A stretch of 53,814 nucleotides of DNA from Oscillospiraceae bacterium (GCA_031550755.1 JAVBOJ010000010.1:1-53814), one strand, 5' to 3'; counted from the first letter of the stretch, positions 4,548-51,130 are shown. Numbers and translations: made by a program. The notes: a model not told the origin generated them from the letters alone.

Positions 4548-6791
4548 ATGGCCAAGAAAGAAAAAGCTCCGCCGACGCAAAAGCAAAACCCCGATATTAT
4601 CGGCCTGCACGCCGAGGTGGTGCGGCAGAAGATTCCCGAAACGCTGGAAAAAAACTTCATGCCCTACGCCATGAGCGTCATCGTCTCGCGCGCCATTCCG
4701 GAGATTGACGGCTTCAAGCCGTCCCACCGGAAGCTTTTGTACACCATGTACAAAATGGGACTGCTGACCGGGGCGCGCACCAAGTCGGCCAATGTCGTCG
4801 GCCAGACCATGCGGCTCAACCCCCACGGAGAGCAGGCCATTTACGAAACCATGGTGCGGCTGACGCGCGGCCATGAGGCGCTGCTGACGCCGCTGGTGGA
4901 CTCCAAGGGCAATTTTGGCAAGTCCTATTCGCGCGACATGGCCTATGCCGCGTCGCGTTATACCGAGGTCAAGCTAGACGCACTGTGCGCAGAACTTTTC
5001 CGCGACATCGACCGCGACACGGTGGATTTTATAGACAACTATGACAACACCACAAAGGAGCCCTGCCTGCTGCCGACCACCTACCCCAACGTGCTGGTGT
5101 CGGCCAATTTGGGCATTGCCGTGGCCATGGCGTCGCAAATTTGCGGCTTCAATCTGGCCGAGGTCTGTCGCACAACGGCTGCCTGGCTTAAAAACCCGGC
5201 GCATGACCTGTTGTCCACCCTGCCGGCACCCGATTTTTCCACCGGCGGCGAGCTGATTTACGACCCCGACGCCATGCGGGAGATTTACCGCACGGGGCGC
5301 GGGTCGTTCCGTCTGCGCGCGCGGTGGCGGTATATGAAGGAGGAAAACCTCATCGAGGTGTTCGAAATCCCATATACCACAACGGTCGAGGCCATCATGG
5401 ACAAGGTGGCCGAGGGCATCAAAAACGGTAAAATCAAAGAAGTATCCGACATGCGCGACGAAACCGGGCTATCCGGGCTCAAGCTGGCCATCGACCTAAA
5501 GCGCGGGGTCGATCCCGAAAAGCTCATGCAAAAGCTCATGAAGGCCACCCCGCTGATGGACACTTTTTCCTGCAATTTCAATGTTCTCATCGCCGGTACG
5601 CCGCATGTGCTGGGCGTCGGCGAGATTTTGGAGGAGTGGAGCGCCTGGCGCACCGAATGCGTCAAGCGCCGGCTGTATTTTGATCTCTCGCGGCTCAGGG
5701 AAAAGCTGCATCTGCTGCTCGGTCTGCGCAAAATCCTGCTGGACATCGACCGCGCCATTGCCATCATCCGCGAGACAGAGGAGGAGGCCGAGGTGCTGCC
5801 CAATCTGATGATTGGGTTCGGCATCGACGAAAAACAGGCGGAATTTATCGCGGAAATTCGCTTGCGCAACATCAACAAGGAATATATTTTAAAAAGGGTG
5901 GCCGAAACCGACGACCTCACCCGCGAGATCGCCAATCTGGAAGCGACCCTGTCCTCCAAGGACAAAATCCGGGCGCTCATCATCGCCGATCTGGAGGCGG
6001 TGGAGAAAAAATACGGTGCGCCGCGCAAAACGGCGCTGGTATACGAGCATGAGGTCACCCATTACAACCCGGAGGAACACATCGAGGACTATCCGGTGCA
6101 TGTATTTGTCTCGCGCGAGGGATACTTAAAGAAGATCACGCCGCAGTCGCTGCGCATGTCGGGCGAGCACAAATACAAGGAAAACGACGGCCCCAAGCAT
6201 GTTTTCGAGGCACAAAACCGCGAGGAGATTTTGGTCTTTACCAACCGGCAGCAAGCGTATAAGGCGCGGCTTTGCGACTTTGACGATGCGCGCGCGTCGG
6301 TTCTCGGCGACTTTTTGCCGGCCAAGCTGGACTTTGACGAGGGCGAAAGCGTCGTATTTGTCTGTCCGGCGGGCGACTTTTCGGGGCATATTTTGTTTTT
6401 CTTTGAAAACGGCAAGGTGGCGCGGGTCACGCTGTCGGCCTATGACACCAAGTCCAACCGCCGCCGTCTCACCGGCGCTTACAGCGATAAGAGTCCGCTG
6501 GCCGACGCGCGGGTGATTTCCGCCGATGAGGAGCTCCTGCTGCGCTCGACCGACGGGCGCGCGCTGATTTTGTACACCGCGGCGCTGACGCCCAAGACCA
6601 CCCGCAACACCCAGGGCGTCGCCGTGATGACCTGCAAAAAGCAGCACAAGCTCTGCGCCGTGGGGACGGCGACCGGCCTGACCAATCCCGCCCGGTTCCG
6701 GGTGCGCAGTCTCCCCGCCGCCGGTGCGCTGCTACGCCCGGAGGACGTGGGGGAAGAGCAAATGCAGTTAACAGTGAACAGTGAGCAGTGA
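4548..6791 (+). CDS. Type IIA DNA topoisomerase subunit A (GyrA/ParC family, ParC-like short form)
   Basis: It contains PYAMSVIVSRAIPEIDGFKPSHRKLLY, NPHGEQAIYETMVRL and the catalytic-Tyr context AYAASRYTEVKL. An extended -10 (TGATATAAT) lies upstream. Confidence 0.85.
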   Translation: MAKKEKAPPTQKQNPDIIGLHAEVVRQKIPETLEKNFMPYAMSVIVSRAIPEIDGFKPSHRKLLYTMYKMGLLTGARTKSANVVGQTMRLNPHGEQAIYETMVRLTRGHEALLTPLVDSKGNFGKSYSRDMAYAASRYTEVKLDALCAELFRDIDRDTVDFIDNYDNTTKEPCLLPTTYPNVLVSANLGIAVAMASQICGFNLAEVCRTTAAWLKNPAHDLLSTLPAPDFSTGGELIYDPDAMREIYRTGRGSFRLRARWRYMKEENLIEVFEIPYTTTVEAIMDKVAEGIKNGKIKEVSDMRDETGLSGLKLAIDLKRGVDPEKLMQKLMKATPLMDTFSCNFNVLIAGTPHVLGVGEILEEWSAWRTECVKRRLYFDLSRLREKLHLLLGLRKILLDIDRAIAIIRETEEEAEVLPNLMIGFGIDEKQAEFIAEIRLRNINKEYILKRVAETDDLTREIANLEATLSSKDKIRALIIADLEAVEKKYGAPRKTALVYEHEVTHYNPEEHIEDYPVHVFVSREGYLKKITPQSLRMSGEHKYKENDGPKHVFEAQNREEILVFTNRQQAYKARLCDFDDARASVLGDFLPAKLDFDEGESVVFVCPAGDFSGHILFFFENGKVARVTLSAYDTKSNRRRLTGAYSDKSPLADARVISADEELLLRSTDGRALILYTAALTPKTTRNTQGVAVMTCKKQHKLCAVGTATGLTNPARFRVRSLPAAGALLRPEDVGEEQMQLTVNSEQ

Positions 6792-6795
6792 ACAG
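6768..6795. repeat. Heptanucleotide tandem array TTAACAG TGAACAG TGAGCAG TGAACAG
   Basis: Read directly from the sequence. The last 7 codons and the TGA stop (6789-6791) of the topoisomerase gene lie inside it. Confidence 0.85.
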
Positions 6796-6820
6796 TTTAT
6801 CATACTGCGCGTGATTGCAT

Positions 6821-6861
6821 CCCTATGAACTACTAACTGTTAACTGTTAACTATTCACTAT
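6821..6861. repeat. CCCTAT box plus heptad array TAACTGT TAACTGT TAACTAT TCACTAT (inverse orientation of 6768-6795)
   Basis: Read directly from the sequence. Confidence 0.85.
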
Positions 6862-6877: not shown

Positions 6878-7747
6878 ATGAAACGTTCTCTCTCCCAATA
6901 CGCGCTGGATTATCTCGTCATCACGCTGGGCTCGGCGCTGATGGCGGTGTCGGTCGTGTGTTTTTTGGATCCGCAAAACATTGTGCCGGGCGGCGTGACG
7001 GGCTTGGCCATGATGGTCAATCACCTCTACAGCGCCCTGCCTATTGGCATGACCATCCTGATTATCAACCTGCCGCTGTTTATTTTGAGCTGGCGGTTCG
7101 CCGGACGCCGGTTTTTGCTGTACACCATTTACGGCACGGTGGTCTCCTCGGTATTCATCGACCTCGGCGCGCATATTTTGCCCATCATTCAGGTGGAGCC
7201 GTTGCTGGCAGCCATTTTCGGCGGACTGACGCTGGGCGCGGGGCTGGGGCTGGTCTTTACCCGGGGCGCCACCACCGGCGGCACCGATGTGGCCGCGCGG
7301 CTGCTCAAGCTGATTTTCCGCCATATGCAGATGGGGCGGCTGATGCTTTGCGTGGACGCCGTGATCATCGCGCTGGCCGGGCTGGTGTTCGGCAAGGTCG
7401 AAAACGTGATGTACGCCGTCATCTGTCTCTATGTCGGCACCCAGATCATGGACGCCATTCTCTACGGGCTCAACACCGCCAAGGTGGCGTATATCATCTC
7501 CGACCACCCCGAGCGGGTGGTGGGTGCCATTTCCGAGCATCTGGACCGGGGTGCCACCCTGCTGCAGGGCGAGGGCGGCTATACCGGCAACCCCAAAAAG
7601 GTCATCCTCTGCGCCGTCAAGCGGCAGCAGATCGCGCTGCTCAAAGAGGTGGTCAAGACCGCCGATCCGGCGGCGTTTCTCATCCTGTCGGAGGCGCACG
7701 AGGTGCTGGGCGAGGGGTTCCGGGAGTACGACAAGCACGCGCTATAA
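6878..7747 (+). CDS. yitT: YitT family membrane protein (C-terminal DUF2179)
   Basis: The N-terminus ...YALDYLVITLGSALMAVSVVCFLDPQNIVPGGVTGLAMM and the overall architecture are typical of YitT. Confidence 0.8.
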   Translation: MKRSLSQYALDYLVITLGSALMAVSVVCFLDPQNIVPGGVTGLAMMVNHLYSALPIGMTILIINLPLFILSWRFAGRRFLLYTIYGTVVSSVFIDLGAHILPIIQVEPLLAAIFGGLTLGAGLGLVFTRGATTGGTDVAARLLKLIFRHMQMGRLMLCVDAVIIALAGLVFGKVENVMYAVICLYVGTQIMDAILYGLNTAKVAYIISDHPERVVGAISEHLDRGATLLQGEGGYTGNPKKVILCAVKRQQIALLKEVVKTADPAAFLILSEAHEVLGEGFREYDKHAL

Positions 7748-24826: not shown

Positions 24827-26260
24827 ATGCGCAAAACAAAAATCGTGGCTACGCTCGGCCCGGCGACCGATTCGGAGGAAATCCTGCGCGGATTGCTCGA
24901 CGCCGGCATGGACGTGGCGCGCTTCAATTTTTCCCACGGAGATTATGAGGAGCAGGCCGCGCGGCTGGCGCTGGCCCGCGCGGTCGCGGTGGAAAAGGGC
25001 ATCCCGCTGGCCATGCTGGCCGATACCAAGGGGCCTGAGGTGCGGCTGGGTGTGTTTGAGGAGGGCCGCGTAACCCTGACCGAGGGGCAGAAATTTTCGC
25101 TGGTCACCGTCGATTGCAAGGGCGACGCCGCCCATGTGTCGGTGTCATACGCCGAGCTGCCGCGCGACGTGACGCGCGGGTCGCATATTTTGCTGGACGA
25201 CGGGCTCATTGAGCTGGCAGTGGACAGCGTGTCGGACACCGAGATCGTCACGACGGTGCTCAACGGCGGCGTCATCTCGTCGCGCAAGGGCGTCAACATT
25301 CCCGGCGCACAGCTCTCCATGCCGTTTCTCAGCAGCCGCGACCGCGCCGACCTGCGCTTTGTGGTGGAGCAGCGGTTTGATTTCATCGCGGCGTCGTTTA
25401 CCCGCTGCGCCGAGGACATCAAGGATCTGCGCGAGGAGCTGACGCGGCTGGACGGGGACTATATCCGCGTCATTGCCAAGATCGAAAACGCGCAGGGTGT
25501 CGCCAATATCGAGGAAATTCTGGCCGCCGCCGACGGCATTATGGTGGCGCGCGGCGATATGGGCGTGGAGATTCCGCTGGAAGAGCTGCCGATCATTCAA
25601 AAGGAGCTCATCAAAAAATGCTACCGCATGGGCAAGCAGGTCATCACGGCCACCCAGATGCTGGATTCCATGATGAAAAACCCCCGTCCCACCCGCGCCG
25701 AGACCTGCGACGTGGCCAACGCCATTTATGATGGCACCAGCGCCATCATGCTGTCGGGCGAAACCGCCGCCGGCAAGTATCCGGTCGAGGCGGTCAAAAC
25801 CATGGCGCGCATCGCGTTGCGCACCGAGCGGGACATAGACTACAAAAAACGCTTCCGCAACCGCGAACCGGACGAGCATCAGAACATCACGAGCGCCATT
25901 TCCCACGCCACCTGCACCACGGCGCACGATCTGGGCGCCGCCGCCATCATCACGGTCACCCAGTCGGGCGTCACGGCGCGCGGCATTTCCAAATACCGCC
26001 CGGCGGTGCCCATCATCTGCTGCAGTCCGCTCCCGCATGTCCAGCGGCAGATGAACATGTCGTGGGGCGTGTCCTCCCTGCTGACGACCGAGCAGAAAAG
26101 CAGCGACGAGCTGTTTGCCCAGGCGGTGGAGGTCTCGCAAAAGGCCGGGCTGATTCAGGACGGCGACCTGGTGGTGCTGACCGCCGGCCTGCCGCTGGGC
26201 AAAACCGGTACGACCAATATGCTGCGGGTGCATGTGGTGGGCGACCCGATCAGAGTGTAG
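24827..26260 (+). CDS. pyk: Pyruvate kinase
   Basis: It contains MRKTKIVATLGPATDS, MVARGDMGVEIP and the MLSGETAAGKYP motif. An ACGGAGGG RBS is present. Confidence 0.93.
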   Translation: MRKTKIVATLGPATDSEEILRGLLDAGMDVARFNFSHGDYEEQAARLALARAVAVEKGIPLAMLADTKGPEVRLGVFEEGRVTLTEGQKFSLVTVDCKGDAAHVSVSYAELPRDVTRGSHILLDDGLIELAVDSVSDTEIVTTVLNGGVISSRKGVNIPGAQLSMPFLSSRDRADLRFVVEQRFDFIAASFTRCAEDIKDLREELTRLDGDYIRVIAKIENAQGVANIEEILAAADGIMVARGDMGVEIPLEELPIIQKELIKKCYRMGKQVITATQMLDSMMKNPRPTRAETCDVANAIYDGTSAIMLSGETAAGKYPVEAVKTMARIALRTERDIDYKKRFRNREPDEHQNITSAISHATCTTAHDLGAAAIITVTQSGVTARGISKYRPAVPIICCSPLPHVQRQMNMSWGVSSLLTTEQKSSDELFAQAVEVSQKAGLIQDGDLVVLTAGLPLGKTGTTNMLRVHVVGDPIRV

Positions 26261-26330
26261 ATAACAGTTAACCGATAGCGGCGTCTCCCAGCCCCCTTTA
26301 TAAAAGGGGGTGCCCCGAAGGGCCGGGGGA
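26261..26330. repeat. Heptad units ATAACAG TTAACCG ATAGCGG followed by the hairpin units CCCCCTTT-ata-AAAGGGGG and CCCCG-aagggc-CGGGG
   Basis: Read directly from the sequence. The region begins immediately after the pyk TAG stop. Confidence 0.75.
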
Positions 26331-28123: not shown

Positions 28124-28891
28124 TTGGATCAACCTGTATTTATGGCGCTGCTGGGCGGACTGTACACCTGGGGCATGACCGCGCTGGGCGGCGCGGCGGT
28201 ATTTTTCTTCAAAAACATCAACCAAAAGCTGCTCAGCATCATGCTGGGCTTTGCCGCCGGCGTGATGATCGCGGCGTCCTTTTGGTCGCTTTTGCTGCCG
28301 GCACTGGAAATGGGCATGGCGCCACTTTGGATCCTGCTGGGATTTTTGAGCGGCGGGGCGTTTTTGTACGCCGCCGACCATATTTTGCCGCATCTGCACA
28401 ATCTGCCGGGCGCGGAGCCGGAGGGCATCAAATCGGGCTGGCGGCGCAGTGTGCTGCTGATTATGGCCATTACCCTGCACAACATCCCGGAGGGACTGGC
28501 CTTCGGCGTGGCGTTCGGCTCCATGGCCGCCCATCCCGACGCCCAAACCACCGCCATGGCGCTGACCATCGGCATCGGCATCCAGAACTTCCCCGAGGGG
28601 GCGGCGGTGTCCATCCCCTTGCGCCGGGAGGGCATGTCGCGCTCGCGCAGCTTTTTCTACTCCCAACTGTCCGGTCTGGTAGAGCCCATCGCCGCCGTCA
28701 TCGGCGCGCTGTTGGCCGTCACCATGACCTCTATTTTGCCGTTTATGCTGGCGTTTGCCGCCGGCGCGATGATTTTTGTGGTGGTGGAGGAGCTCATCCC
28801 CGAGGCGCAGAGCGAACAGGGCGGCCACGGCGGCACCATCGGCGCCATGCTCGGCTTCGGGCTGATGATGCTGCTGGATACGCTGTTTTAG
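28124..28891 (+). CDS. ZIP family metal transporter (ZupT-like); start uncertain (TTG 28124 or ATG 28142)
   Basis: It contains HNIPEGLAFGVAF and IGIQNFPEGAAVS and has 8 TM segments. Confidence 0.8.
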   Translation: MDQPVFMALLGGLYTWGMTALGGAAVFFFKNINQKLLSIMLGFAAGVMIAASFWSLLLPALEMGMAPLWILLGFLSGGAFLYAADHILPHLHNLPGAEPEGIKSGWRRSVLLIMAITLHNIPEGLAFGVAFGSMAAHPDAQTTAMALTIGIGIQNFPEGAAVSIPLRREGMSRSRSFFYSQLSGLVEPIAAVIGALLAVTMTSILPFMLAFAAGAMIFVVVEELIPEAQSEQGGHGGTIGAMLGFGLMMLLDTLF

Positions 28892-29032: not shown

Positions 29033-29791
29033 ATGAAAAAAATCTATGTGCCCATGATCCGGTTTGGCGACCGGGAGTTCGACGAGGGATACATCGGCTG
29101 GGGCTTCAACAGCTATGAGGATCAAATGCGCGACGCGCAAGCGGTTCTGACGCTGGTCGGCCGCCGCAACATAAAGATCCTCGACCTGGCCTGCGGACTG
29201 GGCATCTACCACAAGCTGTGGCTGGAAAACGGCCATACGGTGGTGGGCTCGGATCTGTCCGAGACCTTTATTTTCATGGCAAACAACACAAACGGCTCCT
29301 ACCCCAACGCATCGTACCGGGTAGAAAACTATTACGACCTGTCCGATCAGGACGAATATGACCTCGTCACCCTGATGGACACGCCGATTGAGGACGCCGA
29401 GCTGCCCACGCGGGTGTTCCGCGCGCTGAAGCCCGGCGGAGAGTTTTTGTTCCAGATCGCCAACCCCGCCTATCCGCATCCGCGCGGGCAGGTGGGGGTC
29501 AACCGCCGGGACTGGAAAGAGATGGAGGATCATTCCCTGCTGCTCACCCGGCATGAGTACAATGCCGACATCGACCGGTGGGAATATGAGGAATGGCATG
29601 TGGACATCGAGCGGGCGGAGATCGTCGTGGAGCACAGCTTTTCGCATATTTTGACCTTTGCCCAGACGGTGGACGTCCTCCGGCAGGCCGGGTTTTCCCG
29701 CATCGGGTTCTACGGCCCGGACGGCGCGCCCTATGCCGAGGGCAACACCGAGCATCGGAATTATTTCGCGCTGGCGTATAAGTCACAGTAG
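29033..29791 (+). CDS. Class I SAM-dependent methyltransferase
   Basis: It has motif I, ILDLACGLGIY...GSDLS. Confidence 0.75.
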   Translation: MKKIYVPMIRFGDREFDEGYIGWGFNSYEDQMRDAQAVLTLVGRRNIKILDLACGLGIYHKLWLENGHTVVGSDLSETFIFMANNTNGSYPNASYRVENYYDLSDQDEYDLVTLMDTPIEDAELPTRVFRALKPGGEFLFQIANPAYPHPRGQVGVNRRDWKEMEDHSLLLTRHEYNADIDRWEYEEWHVDIERAEIVVEHSFSHILTFAQTVDVLRQAGFSRIGFYGPDGAPYAEGNTEHRNYFALAYKSQ

Positions 29792-29801
29792 GGGCAACCA
29801 T

Positions 29802-29835
29802 CCCTATCTGTTATCTGTTATCCGTCATCTGCTCC
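29802..29835. repeat. CCCTAT box plus heptads CTGTTAT CTGTTAT CCGTCAT CTGCTCC
   Basis: Read directly from the sequence. It encodes the last residues (QMTDNR) and the TAA stop of the minus-strand regulator gene. Confidence 0.85.
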
Positions 29836-31106: not shown

Positions 31107-31958
31107 ATGAAAAAACGTCTGTCCGCGCTGGGTTTTGGGTTCCTGTATCCCATTTCGTACGCCGTGCTGCAATTTCTGACCGCGTTTGTGGCCGTCTTCG
31201 CCTACACAGTCCTGCATATCAACAGCGTCACGCAGGAGGAGCTTACCGCCTTTACGGTGAATATCTCCCTGCCGATGGTGATGGTGTCGGCGGCTCTCCT
31301 GATTTTCGGGACGGCGGGGATCTACCGCCTGTGCAAGCGCTCTTTTTGGCGGGAAACCAGGCTGACGGTCAAGCCGCGCCTTGTCGGCAAGCTGCTCCTG
31401 GGCGGCATCGGGCTCAATGTCCTGACCATCGCGCTCATGCGGATCATCCCGCTGCCGGCGGCCGAAACGGCCAATTACGAAGGGCTCATGCAGACCTTGA
31501 TGGGCGGCGGCTTGCTGCTGGCCCTGCCGATCGTCTGGTTTGTCGCGCCGGTGGCCGAGGAGATCGTCTTTCGCGGGCTTTCGTACACGGCGCTGCGGCG
31601 GGGCTTGCCGGTCTGGCTGTCGGTGCTCCTGTCGGCAATGCTGTTCGGCGCGGTGCATTTTAATTGGATCCAGAGTACATACGCCACCCTGCTGGGCGTC
31701 GCGCTGGCGCTTTGCTTCCACTGGAGCGGTAGCCTGTGGGCGCCGATTCTCCTGCATGTATCGTACAACAGCTCGGGCAATCTGGTGGGCAATCTGCTGA
31801 TCGGCGCGGAAACCCCGCTGTTTTTGATCATCGTCTGGGGTGTTTTGGGCGCAGCCCTTGCGGTCTGGTGCCTGTTTGAGGTATACTGGGAGCGGTCTTG
31901 TGAAACGGGAGCCGTTTCACAAGAATTATATCATAAGGATGCTTCTCCGGCGGAATGA
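31107..31958 (+). CDS. CPBP family intramembrane glutamic endopeptidase (CAAX protease/Abi), copy 1
   Basis: It contains APVAEEIVFRG, FGAVHF and LLHVSYNS (CPBP motifs 1-3). Confidence 0.8.
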   Translation: MKKRLSALGFGFLYPISYAVLQFLTAFVAVFAYTVLHINSVTQEELTAFTVNISLPMVMVSAALLIFGTAGIYRLCKRSFWRETRLTVKPRLVGKLLLGGIGLNVLTIALMRIIPLPAAETANYEGLMQTLMGGGLLLALPIVWFVAPVAEEIVFRGLSYTALRRGLPVWLSVLLSAMLFGAVHFNWIQSTYATLLGVALALCFHWSGSLWAPILLHVSYNSSGNLVGNLLIGAETPLFLIIVWGVLGAALAVWCLFEVYWERSCETGAVSQELYHKDASPAE

Positions 31959-32814: not shown

Positions 32815-33694
32815 AATCCTGCTTCTGGCGGCGGTCGCCCCGGCGCTCTACCATCTGCTGCAACGACTTGCGGGTGAGCTGATGGGGGCTGTCGGCGGGC
32901 GGTTTTTCTGGGCGCAGTATGCCGGTTCGGAGGCCGACGAGGCCGTGAGCGCGGCGTGGCGAGAATTTATCTATCCATGGATCAACGCCGTTGACATTGT
33001 GACGGCGGTGGTATTTTTGCTGATTTTGTGGGGCGGACTGCGGTTTTTCCACCGTCCAACGGCGGCGACGCTTGGTCTGCGCCGGATCAATGTACATGAT
33101 TTCGTCCCGGTGGCGCTGCTGGGGATTTTGTGCAACACCCTCACGGGATTTTTGGTCGCCGTGGCCAATTTTTCCGAGGAGGCCGTCGCCCAGCACGAAC
33201 AGGTCATGGAGGTCATCGGCAGCGGCCCGCCTCTGCTGGCGGCGCTGATGAGCTGTGTCCTCGCGCCGATTGCCGAGGAGGTCATGGCACGCGGCTTTTG
33301 TTACCGCATTTTGCGCCGGGGCTTCCCGATGATCGTTTCGGCGGTGCTGTCCGGGCTGGTGTTCGGGCTGGCGCACGGCAATCCGGTACAGATTTTTTAC
33401 GCCACGCTGATGGGCGTTTTATTCGGCTATTTGTATGAAAAAACGGCCAATTTGTGGGTGCCCATTTTGCTGCACATGGCCTACAATTCGTCCAATTACC
33501 TGCTGTCGGCGATGTCCGACGCCGGCATCCACTTCTGGCAGTACGCCTGGCAGCCGCCGGTGGTGCTGGGCGCAGTGATCTTTTGTATGCGGCGGGTGAT
33601 CCGGCTGCACGAGAACGAAACCGACGCGCGGGACGCGCTGTTCCCGCCGAGGGGCGTGTTTGTCGCGGACGATGCCGGCAACGGGGAATTGTAA
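32786..33694 (+). CDS. CPBP family intramembrane endopeptidase, copy 3
   Basis: It contains APIAEEVMARG, FGLAHG and LLHMAYNS. It overlaps the end of copy 2 by 29 nt. Confidence 0.75.
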   Translation: MRSSIASRVKILLLAAVAPALYHLLQRLAGELMGAVGGRFFWAQYAGSEADEAVSAAWREFIYPWINAVDIVTAVVFLLILWGGLRFFHRPTAATLGLRRINVHDFVPVALLGILCNTLTGFLVAVANFSEEAVAQHEQVMEVIGSGPPLLAALMSCVLAPIAEEVMARGFCYRILRRGFPMIVSAVLSGLVFGLAHGNPVQIFYATLMGVLFGYLYEKTANLWVPILLHMAYNSSNYLLSAMSDAGIHFWQYAWQPPVVLGAVIFCMRRVIRLHENETDARDALFPPRGVFVADDAGNGEL

Positions 33695-33702
33695 TTTGGA
33701 GG

Positions 33703-33732
33703 CGGGCGGGGGATCCCCGCCCGGCTTTTTTT
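33703..33732 (+). terminator. Intrinsic terminator after CPBP copy 3
   Basis: GGGCGGGGG-at-CCCCGCCC is followed by TTTTTTT. Confidence 0.8.
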
Positions 33733-33780
33733 GCGGGGGAATATGTAGGGGGCGCATCCAAGTCCCCAGCCCCAGTCGAC

Positions 33781-33871
33781 GGGCGACCGGGGACGGTCGC
33801 CCCTACAACGACGGGGCAGAACCCCCGCGTCCCTATCTGTTATCTATTATCTGTTCTCTGTTATCTAACTT
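33781..33871. repeat. Composite intergenic element: GGGCGACCGGGGACGGTCGCCCCTAC hairpin, GGGG-cagaa-CCCC hairpin, CGCGTCCCTAT box and five heptads
   Basis: Read directly from the sequence. The architecture is paralogous to 45722-45840. Confidence 0.85.
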
Positions 33872-34539
33872 CACCATCCGCTCTGCGCCATCGAGACAAA
33901 ATCCTCCTCGGCGACGATGATATGATCGGCCAGAAACACCCCGACCGATTCCAGCGCCTCCTTGAGCCGCAGGGTGGTGACGCGGTCGTCATGAGAAGGC
34001 AGCGCCACCCCGGAGAGGTGGTTGTGCGCCAAAATAACGCTGGACGCGTTGCACGCCAAGGCCAGTTCCACCACGCGCCGCGTGTGGATCTGGGCGGCGT
34101 TGACAATGCCCTCAAACAACTTTTTGCAAACCAGCAGCTTGCATTTTGCGTCGAGACACAGCACATAGACCTGCTCGGTCTTGAGCCCGAAAAAGCGCGG
34201 CAGGAGATACGCCCCGGCCTTTTCAATGGTGTCGAGGCAGTCGTCGCCCGCGGTGCGTGACATCTGATAGCGCCGCCAAAACGGCGGCAGGAGCTTGATC
34301 AGCACGGCGGCGTTTTGCCCCACGCCGGACACCTTGCAGAGCTCCTCCAGCGGCGCGTCCAGCACGCCGGCCAGCGACCCGAATTCCGTTAGCAGCGCGT
34401 GGGCGATGGGGTTGGTGTCCTTTTGCGGCAGCGCGTAAAAAAGCAGCAGCTCGAGGATATTGTGCTCCGGGAAATTGTCCAGTCCCTCGGCGAGAAACCT
34501 CTCCCGCAAGCGTTCCCGGTGTCCCTTGTGCGGATTCAC
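33871..34539 (-). CDS. radC: RadC family protein (JAB/MPN domain)
   Basis: It contains HKGHRERLRERF, a HhH region and ILAHNHLSG (the JAMM motif). The GTG start overlaps the pyrE stop as GTGA. Confidence 0.85.
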   Translation of the reverse strand: MNPHKGHRERLRERFLAEGLDNFPEHNILELLLFYALPQKDTNPIAHALLTEFGSLAGVLDAPLEELCKVSGVGQNAAVLIKLLPPFWRRYQMSRTAGDDCLDTIEKAGAYLLPRFFGLKTEQVYVLCLDAKCKLLVCKKLFEGIVNAAQIHTRRVVELALACNASSVILAHNHLSGVALPSHDDRVTTLRLKEALESVGVFLADHIIVAEEDFVSMAQSGW

Positions 34540-37850: not shown

Positions 37851-39698
37851 ATGAACCGTCCGAAATATTATCTTACCACCTCCATCACTTACGCGTCGCG
37901 CGTGCCGCATATCGGCAACACATACGAGGCGGTGCTGACTGACTGCCTGGCGCGCCACAAACGCGCGCAGGGATTTGACGTCTATTACCTCACCGGCACC
38001 GATGAGCATGGGCAGAAAATCGAGGAGCAGGCCAAGAAGGACGGCCTGACCCCGCAGGCGCATGTGGACAAAATCGCCGGCGAGCTACGCCGCATTTGGG
38101 ATTTTATGGACGTCAGCTATGACGGCTTTATCCGCACGACCGACCCCGCCCATGAAAAAATCGTGCAAAAGATTTTCAAGAAGCTCTACGAGCAGGGAGA
38201 TATTTACAAATCTGCCTACGAGGGGCTGTATTGCGTCGCCTGCGAGGCGTTTTACACCGAGACACAGGCCGAGGGCCATCGCTGCCCCGACTGCGGCGCG
38301 GAGGTTTCTCCCGCCCGCGAGGAAGCCTACTTTCTCAAGCTGTCGCGCTATGCCGACCGGCTGATGCGTCATATCGAGGCGCACCCGGACTTTATCCTGC
38401 CCGAATCCCGCCGCAACGAGATGATCAACAATTTCCTCAAGCCCGGCTTGCAGGATCTTTGCGTCTCGCGCACCAGCTTTTCGTGGGGCGTGCCGGTGGA
38501 TTTTGACCCCGGCCATGTCGTCTATGTCTGGATTGACGCGCTGTCCAATTATATCACGGCGCTGGGCTATGACCCCGACGGGGTCAGCGGCCCGCTCTAC
38601 CAAAAATACTGGCCGGCCGATGTGCATGTCATCGGCAAGGACATTGTGCGGTTTCACGCCATTTATTGGCCGATCATCCTGATGGCGCTGGACATTCCGC
38701 TGCCGACGACGATTTTGGGGCATCCGTGGCTGCTCTCCGGCGACGACAAAATGTCCAAATCCAAGGGCAACGTCGTCTATGCGCGTGACCTTGTGGACGA
38801 GTTCGGCGTGGACGCCGTGCGGTACTACCTGCTGCGCGAGATGCCCTACAATGCAGACGGCACCCTGACCCGCGACCAGTTTGTCGCGCGGGTCAACTCC
38901 GATCTGGCCAACGATCTGGGCAATCTGCTTTCCCGCACGACCGCCATGTGCGAAAAATATTTCGCCGGGGCTCTGTCCGACGCGGTCGAAGCCGCGCCGC
39001 TGGACGCCGAGGTGCTGGCGCTGATCGAACAGACAGAGGCCCGCTATCACGCCGCGCTCGACGCCTTCCAAACGGCGAACGCGCTGGCCGAGGCGTGGAA
39101 GCTGGTCGCGCGCGCCAACAAATACATCGACGAGACCATGCCGTGGGCGCTGGCCAAGGACGAGGCCAACAGGCCCCGGCTGGCGGCGGTGCTGAAAACC
39201 CTTGTGACCGTGCTGCGGGCGCTGGTGCCGCTCATCGAGCCGGCCATGCCGCGCGCCGCCTCCAAGATGCGGGCGCAAATCGAGGGCGAGGTCATTCTCA
39301 AGGGCGAAAATCTCTTCCCGCGCATCGAGGCCGAGGCAAAAGCCGCGCCTGTGGTCGAAAAAACCCCGGCTATCCCGGAAATTACCATCGACGACTTCGC
39401 CAGGCTCGACCTGCGGGTGGCCCGTGTGCTCTCCTGCGAGCCGGTGGCGGGTTCGGACAAACTGCTCTGCCTCCAGGTGGACGCCGGCGAGCCGCGCCAA
39501 GTTGTCTCGGGCATCGCGCGGTTTTACAAGCCGGAGGCGCTGGTGGGCCGGTCGGTCATTTTGGTCAAAAACCTCAAGTCGGTCAAGCTGCGCGGCGTCA
39601 TGAGCCAAGGGATGATCCTCTGCGCCGAGAACAATGACGACGAGGTGTCCGTTTTGTTTGCCCCCGAGGGCATGAAGCCGGGCGCGAAGGTGCGGTGA
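37851..39698 (+). CDS. metG: Methionine--tRNA ligase with C-terminal tRNA-binding domain
   Basis: It contains ASRVPHIGNTYE (HIGH-type), the Zn knuckle CPDCG, KMSKSKGN and a C-terminal OB-fold tail. Confidence 0.93.
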   Translation: MNRPKYYLTTSITYASRVPHIGNTYEAVLTDCLARHKRAQGFDVYYLTGTDEHGQKIEEQAKKDGLTPQAHVDKIAGELRRIWDFMDVSYDGFIRTTDPAHEKIVQKIFKKLYEQGDIYKSAYEGLYCVACEAFYTETQAEGHRCPDCGAEVSPAREEAYFLKLSRYADRLMRHIEAHPDFILPESRRNEMINNFLKPGLQDLCVSRTSFSWGVPVDFDPGHVVYVWIDALSNYITALGYDPDGVSGPLYQKYWPADVHVIGKDIVRFHAIYWPIILMALDIPLPTTILGHPWLLSGDDKMSKSKGNVVYARDLVDEFGVDAVRYYLLREMPYNADGTLTRDQFVARVNSDLANDLGNLLSRTTAMCEKYFAGALSDAVEAAPLDAEVLALIEQTEARYHAALDAFQTANALAEAWKLVARANKYIDETMPWALAKDEANRPRLAAVLKTLVTVLRALVPLIEPAMPRAASKMRAQIEGEVILKGENLFPRIEAEAKAAPVVEKTPAIPEITIDDFARLDLRVARVLSCEPVAGSDKLLCLQVDAGEPRQVVSGIARFYKPEALVGRSVILVKNLKSVKLRGVMSQGMILCAENNDDEVSVLFAPEGMKPGAKVR

Positions 39699-39701
39699 GA
39701 A

Positions 39702-41612
39702 ATGGTATACAATTCCAGAGATTCTTTTTATAAGACCCCCTTCGGCGCGGTGGAAGCCGGGACCGAGGTGCGTTTCGCCATCACGCCGCCGCGCGATTGG
39801 GCGGTTTCGGCCGTGTTTTTGCACGTCGAATTTGAGTTTGACCGCGAAACGGTCGAGATTCCCATGGGCTGGGCCGGCTTGTCCGGCGCACGCGACCTGT
39901 ATCGCGCCGTGCTGCCCACGGGGGATCGGCTGGGGCCGGCTTGGTATTATTTCCGGCTGGAAAGCCCCGGCAGACCGTCGTTTTACTACGGCAACAACGA
40001 CCGGGGCTCCGGCGGCGAGGGAGCGCGGCGGGACGAGCCTGGCCGCGCTTTTCAGCTTACCGTCTACGCCAAAAACGACACGCCGGCGTGGTACGGCGCG
40101 GGTGTGACCTACCATATTTTCCCTGACCGCTTCCGCCGCACCAAGACGCCCAACCCCAAGGGGATGATTGGAAACCGGATCGTCCACAAAAACTGGGAGG
40201 ATGTGCCGGTGTTCCTGCCGGAGGAGAACGGCGAGATCACAAACCGGGACTTTTTCGGCGGATCCATTGCGGGCGTGAGGGAGAAGTTGTTGTATCTCAA
40301 CTCTCTGGGTGTCAATACGATTTATTTTAGCCCGGTGTTTGAGGCCGCCTCCAATCATCGGTACGACACCGCCGACTACCACAAAATCGACCCTATGTTC
40401 GGCACCGAGGAGGAATTCCGCGCCCTGTGCGCCCAAGCGGCGTCGCTGGGGATACGGGTGATTCTGGACGGCGTTTTTTCCCACACAGGATATGATTCCC
40501 GGTATTTCAACGCGCGCGGAAGCTACGACAGCGTCGGCGCGCACCAGTCGCAGGTCTCGCCCTATTTTTCGTGGTACGATTTCCGCGAATGGCCCTTCCA
40601 ATACTCGTCCTGGTGGGGGATTTACACCCTGCCGCAGGTGAATGAAAGCTGTCCGGCCTACATAGACTTTGTGGTAGGCGGACGAGACAGCGTCATCCGT
40701 CATTGGCTGCGCGCCGGGGCTTCCGGCTGGCGGCTGGATGTGGCCGACGAGCTGCCGGACGACTTTATCGTCCGTCTGCGCGAGACACTGCGGGAGGAAA
40801 ACCCCGACGCCGTCCTGATCGGCGAGGTGTGGGAGGACGCGTCCAACAAAATCTCCTACGACGTCCGCCGGCGCTATTTTCTGGGACGTGAGCTGCACGG
40901 CGTGATGAATTATCCGCTGCGCAACGCCCTGCTTTCCTATCTGCTGGGCGGCTTTGCCGAGGATTTCCGCGACGCGATGGAGTCCCTGCGCGAAAATTAT
41001 CCGCGCGACGCCTATATCAGCCTGATGAACAGCCTCGGCACCCATGACACCCCGCGGGTGCTGACCGTGCTGGGCGCACAGGGGCATGAATACAATCTGC
41101 CGCGCGAGGAAAAGGCGGTTTTCCAGCTCTCGCCCGAGCGATACCGGCTGGCCGCCGCCCGGCTCAAGCTGGGTGCGCTGATTTTGTTCTGTTTTCCGGG
41201 CTCGCCCTGCGTCTATTACGGCGACGAGGCCGGCTTGCAGGGCTTTGAGGATCCGTTCAACCGACGGGGCTATCCGTGGGGGCATGAGGATCACGACCTG
41301 CTGGCGTGGTACACCCTGCTGGGGCAGGCGCGCAACGAGCACCGCTGCTTGCAGGCCGGGGAGATTCAATATTTATACGCGCAGGGACCGCTGTTGGTCT
41401 TTGCCCGCGAGACGGAGGAGGAAACCGCGCTCATCGTGGCCAACCGGGGCGACGCGCCCCATGAGGCGACGTTTTCGTGGAGCGGCGGGATTATCTCCGA
41501 TCTGTTCGGGCGCAGGCTGTCGCCGGTGGGCGGCAAGCTGACGTTGACCATCCCGGCGCTGTCGGGCAATGTCTATTTTACCGCGAGGAAGCTACCCCGC
41601 AAGCGCAGGTAG
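39702..41612 (+). CDS. Glycoside hydrolase family 13 alpha-amylase-family enzyme (neopullulanase/cyclomaltodextrinase-like)
   Basis: It has the GH13 regions DGVFSHTG, GWRLDVADE, IGEVWED and GTHDTPR. Confidence 0.85.
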   Translation: MVYNSRDSFYKTPFGAVEAGTEVRFAITPPRDWAVSAVFLHVEFEFDRETVEIPMGWAGLSGARDLYRAVLPTGDRLGPAWYYFRLESPGRPSFYYGNNDRGSGGEGARRDEPGRAFQLTVYAKNDTPAWYGAGVTYHIFPDRFRRTKTPNPKGMIGNRIVHKNWEDVPVFLPEENGEITNRDFFGGSIAGVREKLLYLNSLGVNTIYFSPVFEAASNHRYDTADYHKIDPMFGTEEEFRALCAQAASLGIRVILDGVFSHTGYDSRYFNARGSYDSVGAHQSQVSPYFSWYDFREWPFQYSSWWGIYTLPQVNESCPAYIDFVVGGRDSVIRHWLRAGASGWRLDVADELPDDFIVRLRETLREENPDAVLIGEVWEDASNKISYDVRRRYFLGRELHGVMNYPLRNALLSYLLGGFAEDFRDAMESLRENYPRDAYISLMNSLGTHDTPRVLTVLGAQGHEYNLPREEKAVFQLSPERYRLAAARLKLGALILFCFPGSPCVYYGDEAGLQGFEDPFNRRGYPWGHEDHDLLAWYTLLGQARNEHRCLQAGEIQYLYAQGPLLVFARETEEETALIVANRGDAPHEATFSWSGGIISDLFGRRLSPVGGKLTLTIPALSGNVYFTARKLPRKRR

Positions 41613-45656: not shown

Positions 45657-45721
45657 GTGTTGTTATGGACGGGAGCGGGCGAGCATCATCGACGCGTGGA
45701 GCCAACGAGAGCCAATACGCC

Positions 45722-45840
45722 GGGCGAACGCAGTTCGCCCCTACAAACGATGGGGTTTGCCCCGCTCTCATCATTCTTAATTTTTAATTCTTAATTCTTA
45801 ATTGGTTCCGCGTCCCTATCTGTTATCTGTTATCTGACTT
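45722..45840. repeat. Composite intergenic element: GGGCGAACGCAGTTCGCCCCTAC hairpin, GGGG-tttg-CCCC hairpin, four TTCTTAA-type heptads, CGCGTCCCTAT box and CTGTTAT heptads
   Basis: Read directly from the sequence. It is paralogous to 33781-33871 with an extra heptad block (45774-45801). Confidence 0.85.
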
Positions 45841-45851
45841 GGAGGTGCCCC

Positions 45852-46025
45852 ATGGACTGTCCCATCCTCTCCCCCGAGGAGCTCAACGAATTGTGGCGGC
45901 GGGTCGCGCCGCGTCTGCTGGTCGAGCAGCCCGCCGAGCCGGAGTGCGCCCGCCCGGCCAAGTCCTGCCCTCTGCCGGCGCTTACTCTTCTAGCCGGGAT
46001 AATATTGCTTTTTTTAGACCGATAA
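45852..46025 (+). CDS. Candidate small membrane protein (57 aa), not in the ORF track
   Basis: GGAGG lies 6 nt before the ATG. The first ~43 codons have G/C-rich third positions like the host genes. The product MDCPILSPEELNELWRRVAPRLLVEQPAEPECARPAKSCPLPALTLLAGIILLFLDR ends in a hydrophobic segment. The ORF overlaps the convergent ABC gene end by 44 nt. Confidence 0.3.
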   Translation: MDCPILSPEELNELWRRVAPRLLVEQPAEPECARPAKSCPLPALTLLAGIILLFLDR

Positions 46026-47729: not shown

Positions 47730-48485
47730 TCAATTTGCATTGTATTTCAACGCATTCCGTCTAATTGTCTTGCATATCGCCACAAAAAACAGGCTGAGCA
47801 GGGTGACCAGCAGGATGGCGGCGAACATTTTGTCGTAGGCGTACGATTTTTTCACCCGCATCATGTAGACGCCCAGCCCCCGGTCGCCGCCCAGCCATTC
47901 GGCGATAACCGCGCCGGTCAGCGAATAGGTCACCGCCACGGTCAGGCCGGAGAAAAACGACGGCAACGCCCCCGGCCACTTGACATGCCGAAAAATCTGC
48001 CGGCGGTTTGCGCCCATGGCGCGCAGCAGCCCGGTCATATCCGGGTCGGCGGCGGCCAGCCCGTCAAACAGCGCGATGGTCAGCGGAAAAAAGCAGGTCA
48101 GCGCCACGACGGCCGCCTTGGGCGCCGTGCCGTAGCCCAGCAGGATGACCAAAACCGGTGCCAGCGCAACGGTCGGCACCGTTTGGCTGACCACCAGCAG
48201 CGGGTAGAGCGTACGGCGTGCGACGGGGAAGGCGTCCATCAAGACCGCCGTCAAAAAACCGGCGAAAAGCGCCAGCGCCAGCCCCCAAAACGCCTCCTCC
48301 AGCGTGGCCAGCGCGTGGCCCATGAGGTCGCCGAAGCCCAGCGCAAACGCCCGCCCGATCTTGAGCGGCGACGGCAGCAAAAACGACGACGCGCCCTCTC
48401 CGCCAAGGGTTTGCCACAGCACGAGGAGCACAAGGCAAAACCCCACGGGGTAGAGATTAGCCGCGATGCTTTGTGACTTTTTCAT
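47730..48485 (-). CDS. ABC transporter permease (ThiX-like)
   Basis: A 251-aa, 6-TM protein with an EAA-like loop region. A TPP riboswitch lies upstream of the operon. Confidence 0.8.
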   Translation of the reverse strand: MKKSQSIAANLYPVGFCLVLLVLWQTLGGEGASSFLLPSPLKIGRAFALGFGDLMGHALATLEEAFWGLALALFAGFLTAVLMDAFPVARRTLYPLLVVSQTVPTVALAPVLVILLGYGTAPKAAVVALTCFFPLTIALFDGLAAADPDMTGLLRAMGANRRQIFRHVKWPGALPSFFSGLTVAVTYSLTGAVIAEWLGGDRGLGVYMMRVKKSYAYDKMFAAILLVTLLSLFFVAICKTIRRNALKYNAN

Positions 48486-48753
48486 CGGTGCTCCACACCC
48501 CTTCGGGCGCGTGATTGATCTTGAGATAGGATATGACACTGGGTGCGCCCTGGGTGATACACAGCTTGACACAGCGGGTCACCAGCGCCATTAGGACATC
48601 CAAATCGCCCTCGACGGTAGTCTCAAACGGCCCGACCTCGTAGGGAAGGCCGGAGGCGGCGATCTCGGCGATGACGGCATCCACCACCCGGATGATCTCC
48701 TCCTTGCCCGACACCCCGGGCAGAACCTGCAACGCGACAGCGGCATTCGGCAT
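48457..48753 (-). CDS. MTH1187/YkoF family thiamine-binding protein
   Basis: The 98-aa product MPNAAVALQVLPG...GLPYEVGPFETTVEGDLD is the first gene after the TPP riboswitch. Confidence 0.75.
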   Translation of the reverse strand: MPNAAVALQVLPGVSGKEEIIRVVDAVIAEIAASGLPYEVGPFETTVEGDLDVLMALVTRCVKLCITQGAPSVISYLKINHAPEGVWSTDEKVTKHRG

Positions 48754-48819: not shown

Positions 48820-48835
48820 GAAAAAGCGTCCATAT

Positions 48836-48925
48836 ATTCCCTACGCCGGCATGATCCGGATCAGGTCAAAGGGTCGGAAGAAGCACTTCCCTCTCAGCCC
48901 GTGGCTCGGGCTCCCCGTGTTGGGC
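48836..48925 (-). promoter_or_regulatory. TPP (THI-box) riboswitch
   Basis: The minus strand reads ACGGGGAGCCCGAGCCACGGGCTGAGAGGGAAGTGCTTCTTCCGACCCTTTGACCTGATCCGGATCATGCCGGCGTAGGGAA. It has the conserved CTGAGA, ACCCTTTGACCTGATC-GGAT-ATGCC-GCGTAGGGAA signature. Confidence 0.9.
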
Positions 48926-48928
48926 GTC

Positions 48929-49893: not shown

Positions 49894-49946
49894 AAAAATC
49901 CCTCCTGTCAGCCATAGTCTTTGCCGACAAGAGGGAAATTACGCAG

Positions 49947-50029
49947 TGAACAGTGAACAGTGAATAGTTAACAGTTAAAGAATGAGAGGACGTTGGAAAA
50001 TCTCCCGCGTCCTCTCACTGTTCACTATG
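49947..50029. repeat. Heptad arrays flanking a terminator hairpin: TGAACAG TGAACAG TGAATAG TTAACAG TTAAAGA ... GAGAGGACG-N15-CGTCCTCTC ... ACTGTTC ACTATGC
   Basis: Read directly from the sequence. The region lies immediately downstream of the minus-strand GGDEF gene stop (50030-50032). Confidence 0.85.
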
Positions 50030-51130
50030 CTAGTGGTCCCAGCTGCACTCCACCCGATTCCGTCCATTTTGCTTGGCCAGGTAGAGCATCCGGTCGGAGC
50101 GGGCGATGTTTTCGTCCACCGGCAGCGACGGGTCGAGCTGATGCAGCCCGAAGCTCATGGTGGCGGCAATCGTGCCGCACTGGGGATCCTCCAGCGGCTT
50201 CTGCTCGATGGTCTGGCGCAAACGCTGGGCCACCTGCCACGTGGCGTCGGGCGAGATGCCGGTGAGCAGCAGCAAAAATTCCTCGCCGCCCCAACGGAAG
50301 CAATAGTCGTTGTCGCGCAGATGCCGGGTGAGGATTTCGGCGATATGCACCAGAAAACGGTCGCCGCCCTGATGCTCATACCGGTCGTTGATGACCTTAA
50401 AATGGTCAATGTCGCACATGATGAGCTGGATGGGCGTGCCGCCGTTGAGGCGGGCGCGGGTGATCTCCCGGCCGATGATGTCGTAAAAGGCGCGGCGGTT
50501 GTACAGCTTGGTGAGCTGATCCTTGTGCGCCGATTCGGTGAGGCTGTGCGCCAGTTGAATGAGGCTGTTGCTGGTTTTTTCGCGGATATATTCCACCCCG
50601 ACCGACACCACCGTAAACACCACGAACATCATGGGCAGCCCCAGCCGCAGCTCGGGCGGATAGTCCGACAGACGCCACGCGTCAAACAGCGGGGAGAACA
50701 TGGCCAGAATATTGACCAGCGTCAGCGCGAGGTAAGGAATGGCAAACCCGTTGCCCCAGAAGAAGCAGGCGCATACCGGGAACAAAAGCAGCCAGATGAG
50801 CGGAAAGTTCTCCGCCGGGCTGCGCAGCAGCAGATAATCGGAATAGATCAGCATGGCGGAGGACAGCAGGTACGCCGACCATTGGGCGCGGTCGAGCAGC
50901 AGGATGCACAGCAGCGAGGCGATCGAGGTGCCCAGCGGGAAGAGGTAGGTAAACAGATCGAGCGTTCCGCCCTGCAAGGCGCGGATGCCCATGGCGACGA
51001 CGGAGGCCGCGGCAATCAAGGCGGACAGAAACAACGTATTGCTCTTCTGGCGTTTTCCGCCGCTGTTGAGCAAATAGTCCTCATCCACCAGCTTTTCCAA
51101 AAGACGCTGCGCCCAATGTCCCACGCTCAC
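50030..51130 (-). CDS. Membrane-anchored GGDEF diguanylate cyclase; start tentative (GTG 51130)
   Basis: It contains DIDHFKVINDRYEHQGGD and RWGGEEF and has a multi-TM N-terminus. GGAAGGGGG lies 8 nt before the GTG. The longer track ORF would overlap the upstream gene. Confidence 0.8.
   Translation of the reverse strand: MSVGHWAQRLLEKLVDEDYLLNSGGKRQKSNTLFLSALIAAASVVAMGIRALQGGTLDLFTYLFPLGTSIASLLCILLLDRAQWSAYLLSSAMLIYSDYLLLRSPAENFPLIWLLLFPVCACFFWGNGFAIPYLALTLVNILAMFSPLFDAWRLSDYPPELRLGLPMMFVVFTVVSVGVEYIREKTSNSLIQLAHSLTESAHKDQLTKLYNRRAFYDIIGREITRARLNGGTPIQLIMCDIDHFKVINDRYEHQGGDRFLVHIAEILTRHLRDNDYCFRWGGEEFLLLLTGISPDATWQVAQRLRQTIEQKPLEDPQCGTIAATMSFGLHQLDPSLPVDENIARSDRMLYLAKQNGRNRVECSWDH

Follow-up and report, generated by a model that had tools for sequence, protein, structure and literature searches.

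The DNA considered here is a window of 53,814 nucleotides (nt), comprising the whole of contig C33 in the 1.83-Mb, 158-contig assembly of an Oscillospiraceae-type gut bacterium (a metagenome-assembled genome, MAG, of 60.8% GC and 87% completeness, hereafter G000). Its subject is a set of tandem heptanucleotide arrays, reading CTGTTNN on one strand and NNAACAG on the other, that lie in the spacers between protein-coding genes. Arms of such arrays meet the stop codons of genes for a topoisomerase (arm at 6765), pyruvate kinase (26261), a regulator resembling bacterial enhancer-binding proteins (bEBP-like, 29805), RadC (33837) and a GGDEF protein (50014), and they lie upstream of the start codons of YitT (6834), a 57-codon open reading frame (ORF, 45820) and germination protease (GPR, 49944). 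A methyltransferase gene convergent with the bEBP-like regulator ends at 29791. All seven heptad sites listed in the initial annotation are present where it placed them, as are its CCCTAT boxes at 6821, 29802, 33831 and 45814, and Tandem Repeats Finder reports period-7 repeats at 6765-6796, 6834-6852, 29805-29831, 33834-33866, 45817-45836 and 49944-49975. The main site (33837-33871) carries a single arm only, preceded by a box, a small GC hairpin and an M3 hairpin, and folding predicts no structure for the array there. For the paired element at 49935-50040 the predicted fold has a z-score of -5.9. The features of the window are collected in Table 1.

Gene boundaries were taken from a self-trained dicodon model, seeded on ORFs with a Shine-Dalgarno (SD) sequence and checked against Pfam on 20 ORFs; at least one gene, for a membrane protein (31107-31958), escapes it. 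In the complete assembly 42 arrays have period 7, compared with 1-15 for periods 4-12. The 181 kb of intergenic DNA hold 45 period-7 arrays, compared with 1-5 for any other period and with an expectation of 0.2 (maximum 2) in 30 first-order Markov simulations. Intergenic DNA accounts for only 9.9% of the genome but for 89% of array bases. Among the tandem repeats of G000, those of period 7 dominate. About 45 arrays are of the NNAACAG/CTGTTNN kind (CTGTTAT, TTCACTG, CTGTTAA) and six are of a second kind, TTAATTC; arrays have 2 to 7 units, which are degenerate.

Table 1. Heptad arms and associated modules in the window (a dot marks features listed without strand)
Feature	Position	Strand	Remarks
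Left arm (NNAACAG on + strand)	6765..6796	-	Codes the LTVNSEQ end and TGA (6789-6791) of the ParC/GyrA-type topoisomerase
Palindromic element core	6797..6833	.	CCCTAT box at 6821-6826
Right arm TAACTGT x2, TAACTAT, TCACTAT	6834..6861	+	YitT start codon at 6878, 16 nt downstream
Decayed arm and box ATAACAG TTAACCG ATAGCGGCG	26261..26283	-	Directly 3' of pyruvate kinase TAG (26258-26260)
CCCTAT box and arm	29802..29835	+	Minus-strand bEBP-like regulator ends within the arm (..EQMTDNR, stop 29811-29813)
Hairpin module M3, CGGGCGACCGGGGACGGTCGCCCCTACAA	33780..33808	+	26 M3-family copies in the genome
Small GC hairpin GACGGGG-cagaa-CCCCCGCGTC	33810..33831	+	Adjoins the inner GC box
Inner GC box CCCGCGTCCCTAT	33824..33836	+	Last 6 nt are CCCTAT
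Heptad arm CTGTTAT CTATTAT CTGTTCT CTGTTAT CTAACTT	33837..33871	+	3' end touches the RadC stop (33871-33873, minus)
M3-type hairpin CCGGGCGAACGCAGTTCGCCCCTACAAA of composite element	45720..45747	+	
Second heptad type TTCTTAA/TTAATTC, 4.4 copies	45772..45803	.	Tandem Repeats Finder 45773-45803
Box CCGCGTCCCTAT and arm CTGTTAT CTGTTAT CTGACTT	45808..45840	+	SD GGAGGTG (45841-45847) follows; ATG at 45852
Long arm	49944..49981	-	CTGTTNN in the sense of the minus-strand gene; 50 nt upstream of the GPR start (49893)
Central GC hairpin GAGAGGACG-N15-CGTCCTCTC	49986..50018	.	
Short arm CTCACTGTTCACTATG	50014..50029	+	Adjoins the GGDEF gene stop TAG (50030-50032, minus)

Across the array-bearing spacers the order of parts is as follows: an arm (NNAACAG)n, a box ATAGGGACGCGG, one or more GC hairpin modules, a box CCGCGTCCCTAT and an arm (CTGTTNN)n. 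Complete copies are two-armed, and many copies have one arm. The box (consensus CGYRTCCYTAT) has 36 genomic copies, and heptads follow 24 of these; the dispersed family with a shared CCCTAT box that had been proposed is genuine. Between the boxes lies cargo of several types: H1 (GTCGGCGnAGCCGAC) and H2 (ATCGCGCnnnGCGCGAT), two small palindromes linked by AATTCAAT, the GAGAGGACG..CGTCCTCTC hairpin, and the longer modules M1 (~CTTTCTTTGGCCGGGGCAAAGAAAG), M2 (CGGTCTGCGACCCTCCGGGTCTCGCCG) and M3 (GGGCGA..TCGCCCCTACAA). M3 occurs 26 times in G000 and M2 27 times, with about 6-9 copies for H1 and H2. Cores and arms are interchangeable: an identical core is found with CAGATAA, CAGTGAA or AATTAAG arms, and identical arms are found with different cores.

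Neighbouring arrays are inverted relative to each other in 15 of 16 pairs, as are the boxes ATAGGGACGCGG and CCGCGTCCCTAT, and paired arms have matching units in all three families (CAGATAA, CAGTGAA and AATTAAG). The arm complementarity score has a median of 11.5 for true pairs and 3.0 for cross-paired arms (p = 0.02), and at C96:3929-4139 both arms carry even the rare variant units CTAGTAT and CTACTAT. The arrays are probably the outer arms of dispersed, non-coding, mosaic and largely palindromic intergenic elements, selfish or neutral, of the same kind as the STRR repeats of cyanobacteria and the intervening sequences (IVS) of ribosomal RNA. Most likely the elements have no dedicated cellular function.

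Array-bearing spacers consist to 70% of dispersed repeats, and the unique DNA left at their two ends is only 18 and 13 nt. Where tandem genes have an array between them, the median spacer is 171 nt long; for array-free spacers of this kind the median is 48 nt. At the topoisomerase-YitT junction the spacer is 12-27 nt and array-free in four relatives, whose topoisomerase ends in ..QL(T/A)L and a stop; the window array starts exactly at that point and adds the end ..LTVNSEQ. Likewise, gyrB and gyrA are 8-28 nt apart in eight relatives, with elements present between them in G000 and G003. In the G000 region (C22:1856-9096, locus L124) a gene for an SLH-domain-like surface protein and another that is YcxB-like separate gyrB from gyrA, with a paired heptad element at each of the three junctions, and G003 has a 703-nt mosaic that ends in a box and (CTGTTAC)n right ahead of the gyrA SD. 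This splitting of gyrB and gyrA by two element-bounded genes prompted a comparison with integrons, which was rejected: GTTATCT and GTTCACT do not fit the 7-bp core sites (GTTRRRY / RYYYAAC) that bound the imperfect attC palindrome, and elements also lie at ordinary housekeeping operon junctions.

A different account would do without mobility, the arrays having grown in place by replication slippage on chance 7-mer seeds, as long simple sequence repeats in the sense of Mrazek et al. (2007), and the inverted pairs having formed by local template switching. The variable copy number and degenerate units would suit it, as would a unit that differs between genera while the period stays at 7, and strains of Cyanothece differ mostly by 7-nt indels (PMC4679880). 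A local seed is also possible at the topoisomerase end, where the first unit overlaps codons like those of the ancestral Q-L-T-L tail. However, arrays are joined to the same non-repetitive boxes and cores at 20-36 loci, something that slippage cannot produce by itself; at the orthologous junctions of relatives entire elements are missing; and the sharing of rare variant units by the two arms of the C96 element also argues against independent growth. We regard an origin without mobility as unlikely.

To score placement relative to genes, every array was turned so that it reads CTGTTNN. In this orientation 39 of 43 arrays have their closer gene boundary on the 3' side. For 22 of 45 arms this boundary is a same-strand start codon at a median distance of 26 nt, with the array ending 1-5 nt ahead of the SD (e.g. 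..TTATCTGacttGGAGGtgccccATG), and for the other 23 it is the stop codon of an opposite-strand gene at a median distance of 2 nt, the stop lying inside the array in nine cases. The arms are the outermost parts of spacer-filling elements, and therefore each points at whichever gene boundary is present. The anchoring at gene 3' ends described in the initial annotation is thus not borne out. Its observation of arrays close to stop codons holds for the 23 stop-facing arms, with the remaining arms sitting before an SD or start; its strand rule stands in so far as the stop-bearing strand always faces the gene at gene ends, although the rule is geometric and extends to starts. The array at 49947-49981, which it had set apart as an exception, belongs to the start-facing half of the rule together with the arms at 6834 and 45820.

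The strand that reads inward from a gene end can nevertheless encode that end. At least 13 genes have C-terminal tails and stops coded by an array, the tails being QITDNR (twice), QITVNR, QMTDNR, QITKNR, QRMDNR, QIIDNN, TVNSVQ, LTVNSEQ, RIVNS and others, each followed directly by the stop; a GGDEF gene of G003 ends likewise in ..MADNR. Such ends raise the possibility that the arrays are devices selected at gene 3' ends, either as a frame-independent stop pad or as part of a terminator. The array-coded tails, the close contact of half of the arms with stops and the TAA/TGA strand facing the gene there are what would be expected of a pad. The arithmetic behind stops in all three frames is correct, but it is trivial and applies to the NNAACAG strand only: any 7-mer with TAA or TGA gives a stop in every frame after three copies, and stop codons are absent from the CTGTTAT and CTGTTCA strands. 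From base composition we estimate that a random AT-rich 7-mer has a chance of roughly 0.4 of carrying a stop on a given strand, and the three-frame stops are therefore no evidence of selection. In addition, almost half of the arms are located at gene 5' ends, oriented so as to be free of stops, and the same junctions in relatives work with array-free spacers of 12-27 nt.

The terminator part of this idea finds a favourable case in G003, where an arm at locus L163 is followed by a clear hairpin and T-run. At the main site, by contrast, neither the array nor its hairpins carry a T-run terminator in a scan of 33600-34000. The terminator-like sites in this interval are 33703-33732 (+), 33639-33656 (+) and 33638-33624 (-), and the only canonical one, 33703-33732, serves the convergent Rce1-like gene, which speaks against the association with termination suggested earlier. 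A metatranscriptome RNA contig from the same study also passes through the complete paired element on C41. A selected 3'-end device, in either form, appears quite improbable; the stop-pad property is a by-product seen at half of the arms.

A further proposal is that the heptads are sites for a sequence-specific RNA- or DNA-binding regulator, either in a translational regulon like that proposed for the TAACTGA repeats of Beggiatoaceae or for a HutP-like ring protein, which binds triplets 7 nt apart. The constant orientation of the arms that end just before the SD of 19 genes would suit such a role. TAACTGT is identical to TAACTGA in six of seven positions and has the same orientation to the downstream gene (PMC4679880), and a preprint reports that heptamer repeats affect recF/recO expression in Nostoc (10.1101/2022.06.06.494920). 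On the other hand, the same arrays lie in the complementary sense behind stops, so there is no constant RNA sequence. G000 alone has at least three unit types, and sister genera use others. The genes downstream of arms are unrelated housekeeping genes with no shared theme (gyrA, tilS, flgK, fliW, GPR, plsY-like and others). HutP itself is encoded in G000 and was considered as a binding partner, but its family distribution does not follow the arrays, being absent from G001, G009, G021 and G024 and present in the array-poor G016, G020, G008, G012 and G002. A binding-site role for the heptads therefore seems hardly probable.

The distribution across genomes separates period from sequence. Three consecutive CTGTTNN units are found in 8 of 15 sampled genomes of the family to which the window belongs, where they are concentrated. 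Outside it, the 29 further families of the order contribute 236 genomes, of which 10 have such units and a single one has three or more hits. The same architecture is present in three other genera of the family. Sister genera have other units in equivalent positions, TTGTCNN in G013 and G005 and ATTGACA right after the gyrB stop in G016 (L188). The 7-nt period is conserved within the family, and the unit sequence is not. Exact (CTGTTAT)3 is found in more than 120 contigs from many phyla, sometimes as inverted pairs.

The interpretation of the arrays as arms of dispersed elements can be put as a series of steps. Without elements, the spacers would be only about 10-30 nt long. Elements would have come into them by insertion or copying, and the number of units would then have changed by slippage, by analogy with the 7-nt indels between Cyanothece strains (PMC4679880). 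Given such short spacers, one arm abuts or overruns the upstream stop and the other ends 1-5 nt before the downstream SD; the tight contact with stops and SDs arises because the inserts occupy spacers that offer few permissive bases. Complementary arms could zip into a stem and loop the insert out of the transcript, so that it would be tolerated, and this would also explain tolerance of the same design at a 16S rRNA helix tip, described below. The inward-reading strand closes every frame, so that a hit on the last codons would cost only a short new tail, and this property may help the element to survive at gene ends. As side effects, transcripts would form long stems at operon junctions and proteins would acquire new C-termini. 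Of the explanations guessed for the arrays in the initial annotation, the tail of a miniature mobile element comes closest to the evidence.

Several observations weigh against this interpretation. No transposase or other mobilising enzyme was identified. An IS200-type Y1 transposase of the RAYT kind (PF01797) was tried as mobiliser and has no match in G000, G003 or G011, and the presence of Y1 transposases in other genomes does not track the arrays. No target-site duplication is evident on inspection of the topoisomerase-YitT and C22 junctions, where variable array ends blur the boundaries. The evidence from presence and absence consists of genus-level comparisons, and it is from these that insertion is inferred. 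The junction upstream of gyrA is occupied recurrently in two genera, which could reflect selection instead of a hot spot. Many copies are one-armed, and the loop-out argument does not cover them. The C41 RNA contig fits co-transcription of the element with its neighbours, though DNA carry-over in the library is possible. Finally, PF05635, the family found inside heptad-armed cassettes elsewhere in the order, has no match in the 87% complete G000.

Other searches were likewise negative within their scope. The genes between arms (C9:29550-30440 and the YcxB-like gene) have no transposase domain, and BLAST of the full composite element against plasmid and phage collections gave no match. Rfam at the gathering threshold finds only a thiamine pyrophosphate (TPP) riboswitch and tRNA in the window, with no element module; at E <= 0.1, ten element-bearing loci give only small-subunit (SSU) rRNA and one sub-threshold chance hit. 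Exact-protein look-up for other strains (RadC in two start variants, and YitT) returned no record.

Two findings outside the window bear on where such elements come from. The first is an insertion in rRNA. In G011 (L169, G011:C61:1-575, minus strand), alignment to the SSU model shows 168 nt in place of the 8-nt loop of 16S helix 6 (V1), made up of (ACAGATA)3, an inverted heptad arm and two palindromes resembling H1/H2. In G000, a 16S 5' fragment on contig C44 (13832-13957; L126:1033-1158) leads into (CAGTGAA)n at the corresponding position, which is also where the contig stops. The G000 16S gene probably carries a comparable insertion; one metagenome contig has a form without the array.

The second is a local association with genes for PF05635, the "23S rRNA intervening-sequence" four-helix-bundle protein, which occur in 130 of 301 genomes of the order in up to nine copies. 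In G005, of the same family as G000 (L213, C53:~28250-28700), a PF05635 gene lies between TAGTTGT.. and ..ACAACTA arms with GGACGGGGG/CCCCGTCC boxes, and the left arm begins at the stop codon of the upstream gene. Full flanks were available for 26 loci, and at 14 of these a period-7 array lies no more than 220 nt from the PF05635 ORF. Array density near these genes is 2.1 per kb, compared with 0.06 elsewhere in the same loci and 0.06 in control loci, a 35-fold difference. Arrays lie on both sides at ten loci, and the nearest pair is clearly complementary in eight, the exceptions being L213, where the arm is just beyond a GC box, and L231. The unit sequence of these arms varies between loci (L213, L216-L244). 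PF05635 is homologous to Avd, the accessory protein of diversity-generating retroelements (PMC10053308), and in the literature we found no paper describing heptad arms around it.

The elements of G000 are probably the ORF-less counterpart of these cassettes, which have the same arm design around the PF05635 four-helix-bundle gene. Tentatively, and with more doubt than confidence, we suggest that heptad-armed hairpins are the non-autonomous form of a widespread new class of element, whose coding members carry the PF05635 gene, which spreads independently of transposases and which accounts for the STRR repeats. If so, the targets of the class would be sites harmless for a self-folding insert, such as rRNA helix tips and stop-SD gaps, the heptamer repeats of many phyla would be explained, and the period of 7 would stem from the way in which the arms are produced or recognised. 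The likeness to rRNA IVS is that of a self-contained hairpin at an rRNA helix tip, as in the 168-nt insert of G011, and the likeness to the PF05635 cassettes is that of inverted heptad arms and, in G005, an arm-plus-CCCCGTCC box. By contrast, the elements of G000 have no ORF and lie between protein-coding genes in a genome lacking PF05635 matches. Known ORF-bearing IVS are in 23S rRNA, not 16S, and the PF05635 cassettes, which share the arm design, are not known transposases.

To our knowledge, the heptamer tandem repeats of cyanobacteria have been known for more than 30 years and have no accepted origin or function. The STRR heptanucleotide repeats of heterocystous forms were reportedly described by Mazel et al. 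in 1990, with the STRR1-3 units CCCCAGT, TTGGTCA and CAACAGT; the B-type unit AACAGTG is one base off STRR3, read as AACAGTC. Elhai et al. in 2008 reportedly described the small dispersed repeats (SDR) of Nostoc punctiforme as small hairpin cores in tandem heptamers and proposed that they are mobile without a known enzyme; their sequences and host differ from those treated here. The G000 arrays resemble STRR in their tandem 7-nt units in 2-7 or more copies, their many dispersed and mostly intergenic loci and their several unit families per genome. They differ in that they occur in a GC-rich Clostridia MAG of Oscillospiraceae type, obtained from an invertebrate gut and encoding a spore germination protease, that the arrays are the arms of palindromic mosaics with fixed GC boxes, and that the units are CTGTTAT, TTCACTG, CTGTTAA and TTAATTC and not those of STRR1-3.

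Heptamer long simple sequence repeats form a wider class (Mrazek et al. 2007, summarised in PMC4679880). TAACTGA direct repeats are found in marine Beggiatoaceae, Cyanobacteria and Bacteroidetes (MacGregor 2015, PMC4679880), with a patchy occurrence across phyla and 7-nt indels between strains (PMC4679880). Like these, the arrays of the window include a near-identical unit, TAACTGT (6834-6847, 6/7), and many lie just before starts in one orientation. Unlike them, an SD is present here and the array stops just before it, the unit is one base different, and the arrays form inverted pairs around GC hairpins. The TAACTGA repeats lie mostly forward, just upstream of starts; here 22 of 45 arms are so placed, and the other 23, about half, are at gene ends in the opposite sense. 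The initial annotation knew of no described repeat family with this organisation, a statement that is wrong in kind, since the STRR, the long simple sequence repeats of Mrazek and the TAACTGA repeats are all heptamer families.

Mosaic intergenic repeats are also known from other bacteria, among them the REP/BIME of E. coli, pneumococcal BOX, the Correia elements of Neisseria and other miniature inverted-repeat transposable elements (MITEs). The present elements share with all of these their make-up as intergenic mosaics of short, palindromic, non-coding modules, a probable co-transcription, tens of copies per genome and absence from the orthologous sites of relatives. As in MITEs, arms and boxes form terminal inverted repeats. 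The present elements differ in having termini that are heptad arrays of variable length and not fixed inverted repeats, and no RAYT or transposase partner or target-site duplication was found. REPINs are related mosaic repeats (PMC3116915).

G000 gives heptamer repeats a clear anatomy in gut Clostridia, with inverted arms, fixed GC boxes, interchangeable hairpin cores and spacers that are filled exactly. The question of their origin is made testable by two links, the 16S helix insertion in a relative and the local association of heptads with PF05635 across the order. The elements also have practical consequences: at least 13 genes have received their C-terminus and stop codon from them, operon junctions become about three times as long, short-read assemblies break, with contigs ending within them, and gene callers and 16S analyses can be misled.

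Some further observations concern cargo and neighbouring sequences. M1 and M2 together make up a GC-rich structured repeat of roughly 100-150 nt with 27-39 hits and no Rfam match, for example at C9:11196-11477, C29:1-255, C82:7430-7682 and C141:1328-1863 in G000; it is also present in G003 and G011, often nested between box and arm. At G000:C9:29441-30546 an orphan gene for a 296-aa membrane-anchored protein without Pfam match is placed like cargo, flanked by an arm plus box to the left and by a complete paired element to the right, and it has its own consensus promoter (TTGCTG-17-TATAAT).

The 57-codon ORF of the window (45852-46025, +) has a strong SD, starts 15 nt past the arm and has no Pfam match; it shares 44 nt with the 3' end of the ABC ATPase gene that converges on it. 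A flank resembling that of this ORF (acttggaggtgcc) precedes an unrelated gene for a 638-aa membrane protein on C29. The TPP riboswitch of the window (66.6 bits) is at 48820-48927 (-), upstream of the minus-strand genes at 47730-48753. At 38085-41369 (-) an antisense ORF of 1094 codons lies over the real genes for methionyl-tRNA synthetase and alpha-amylase (37851-41612, +); it misled a simple codon-usage gene caller and represents an annotation trap in the GC-rich G000.

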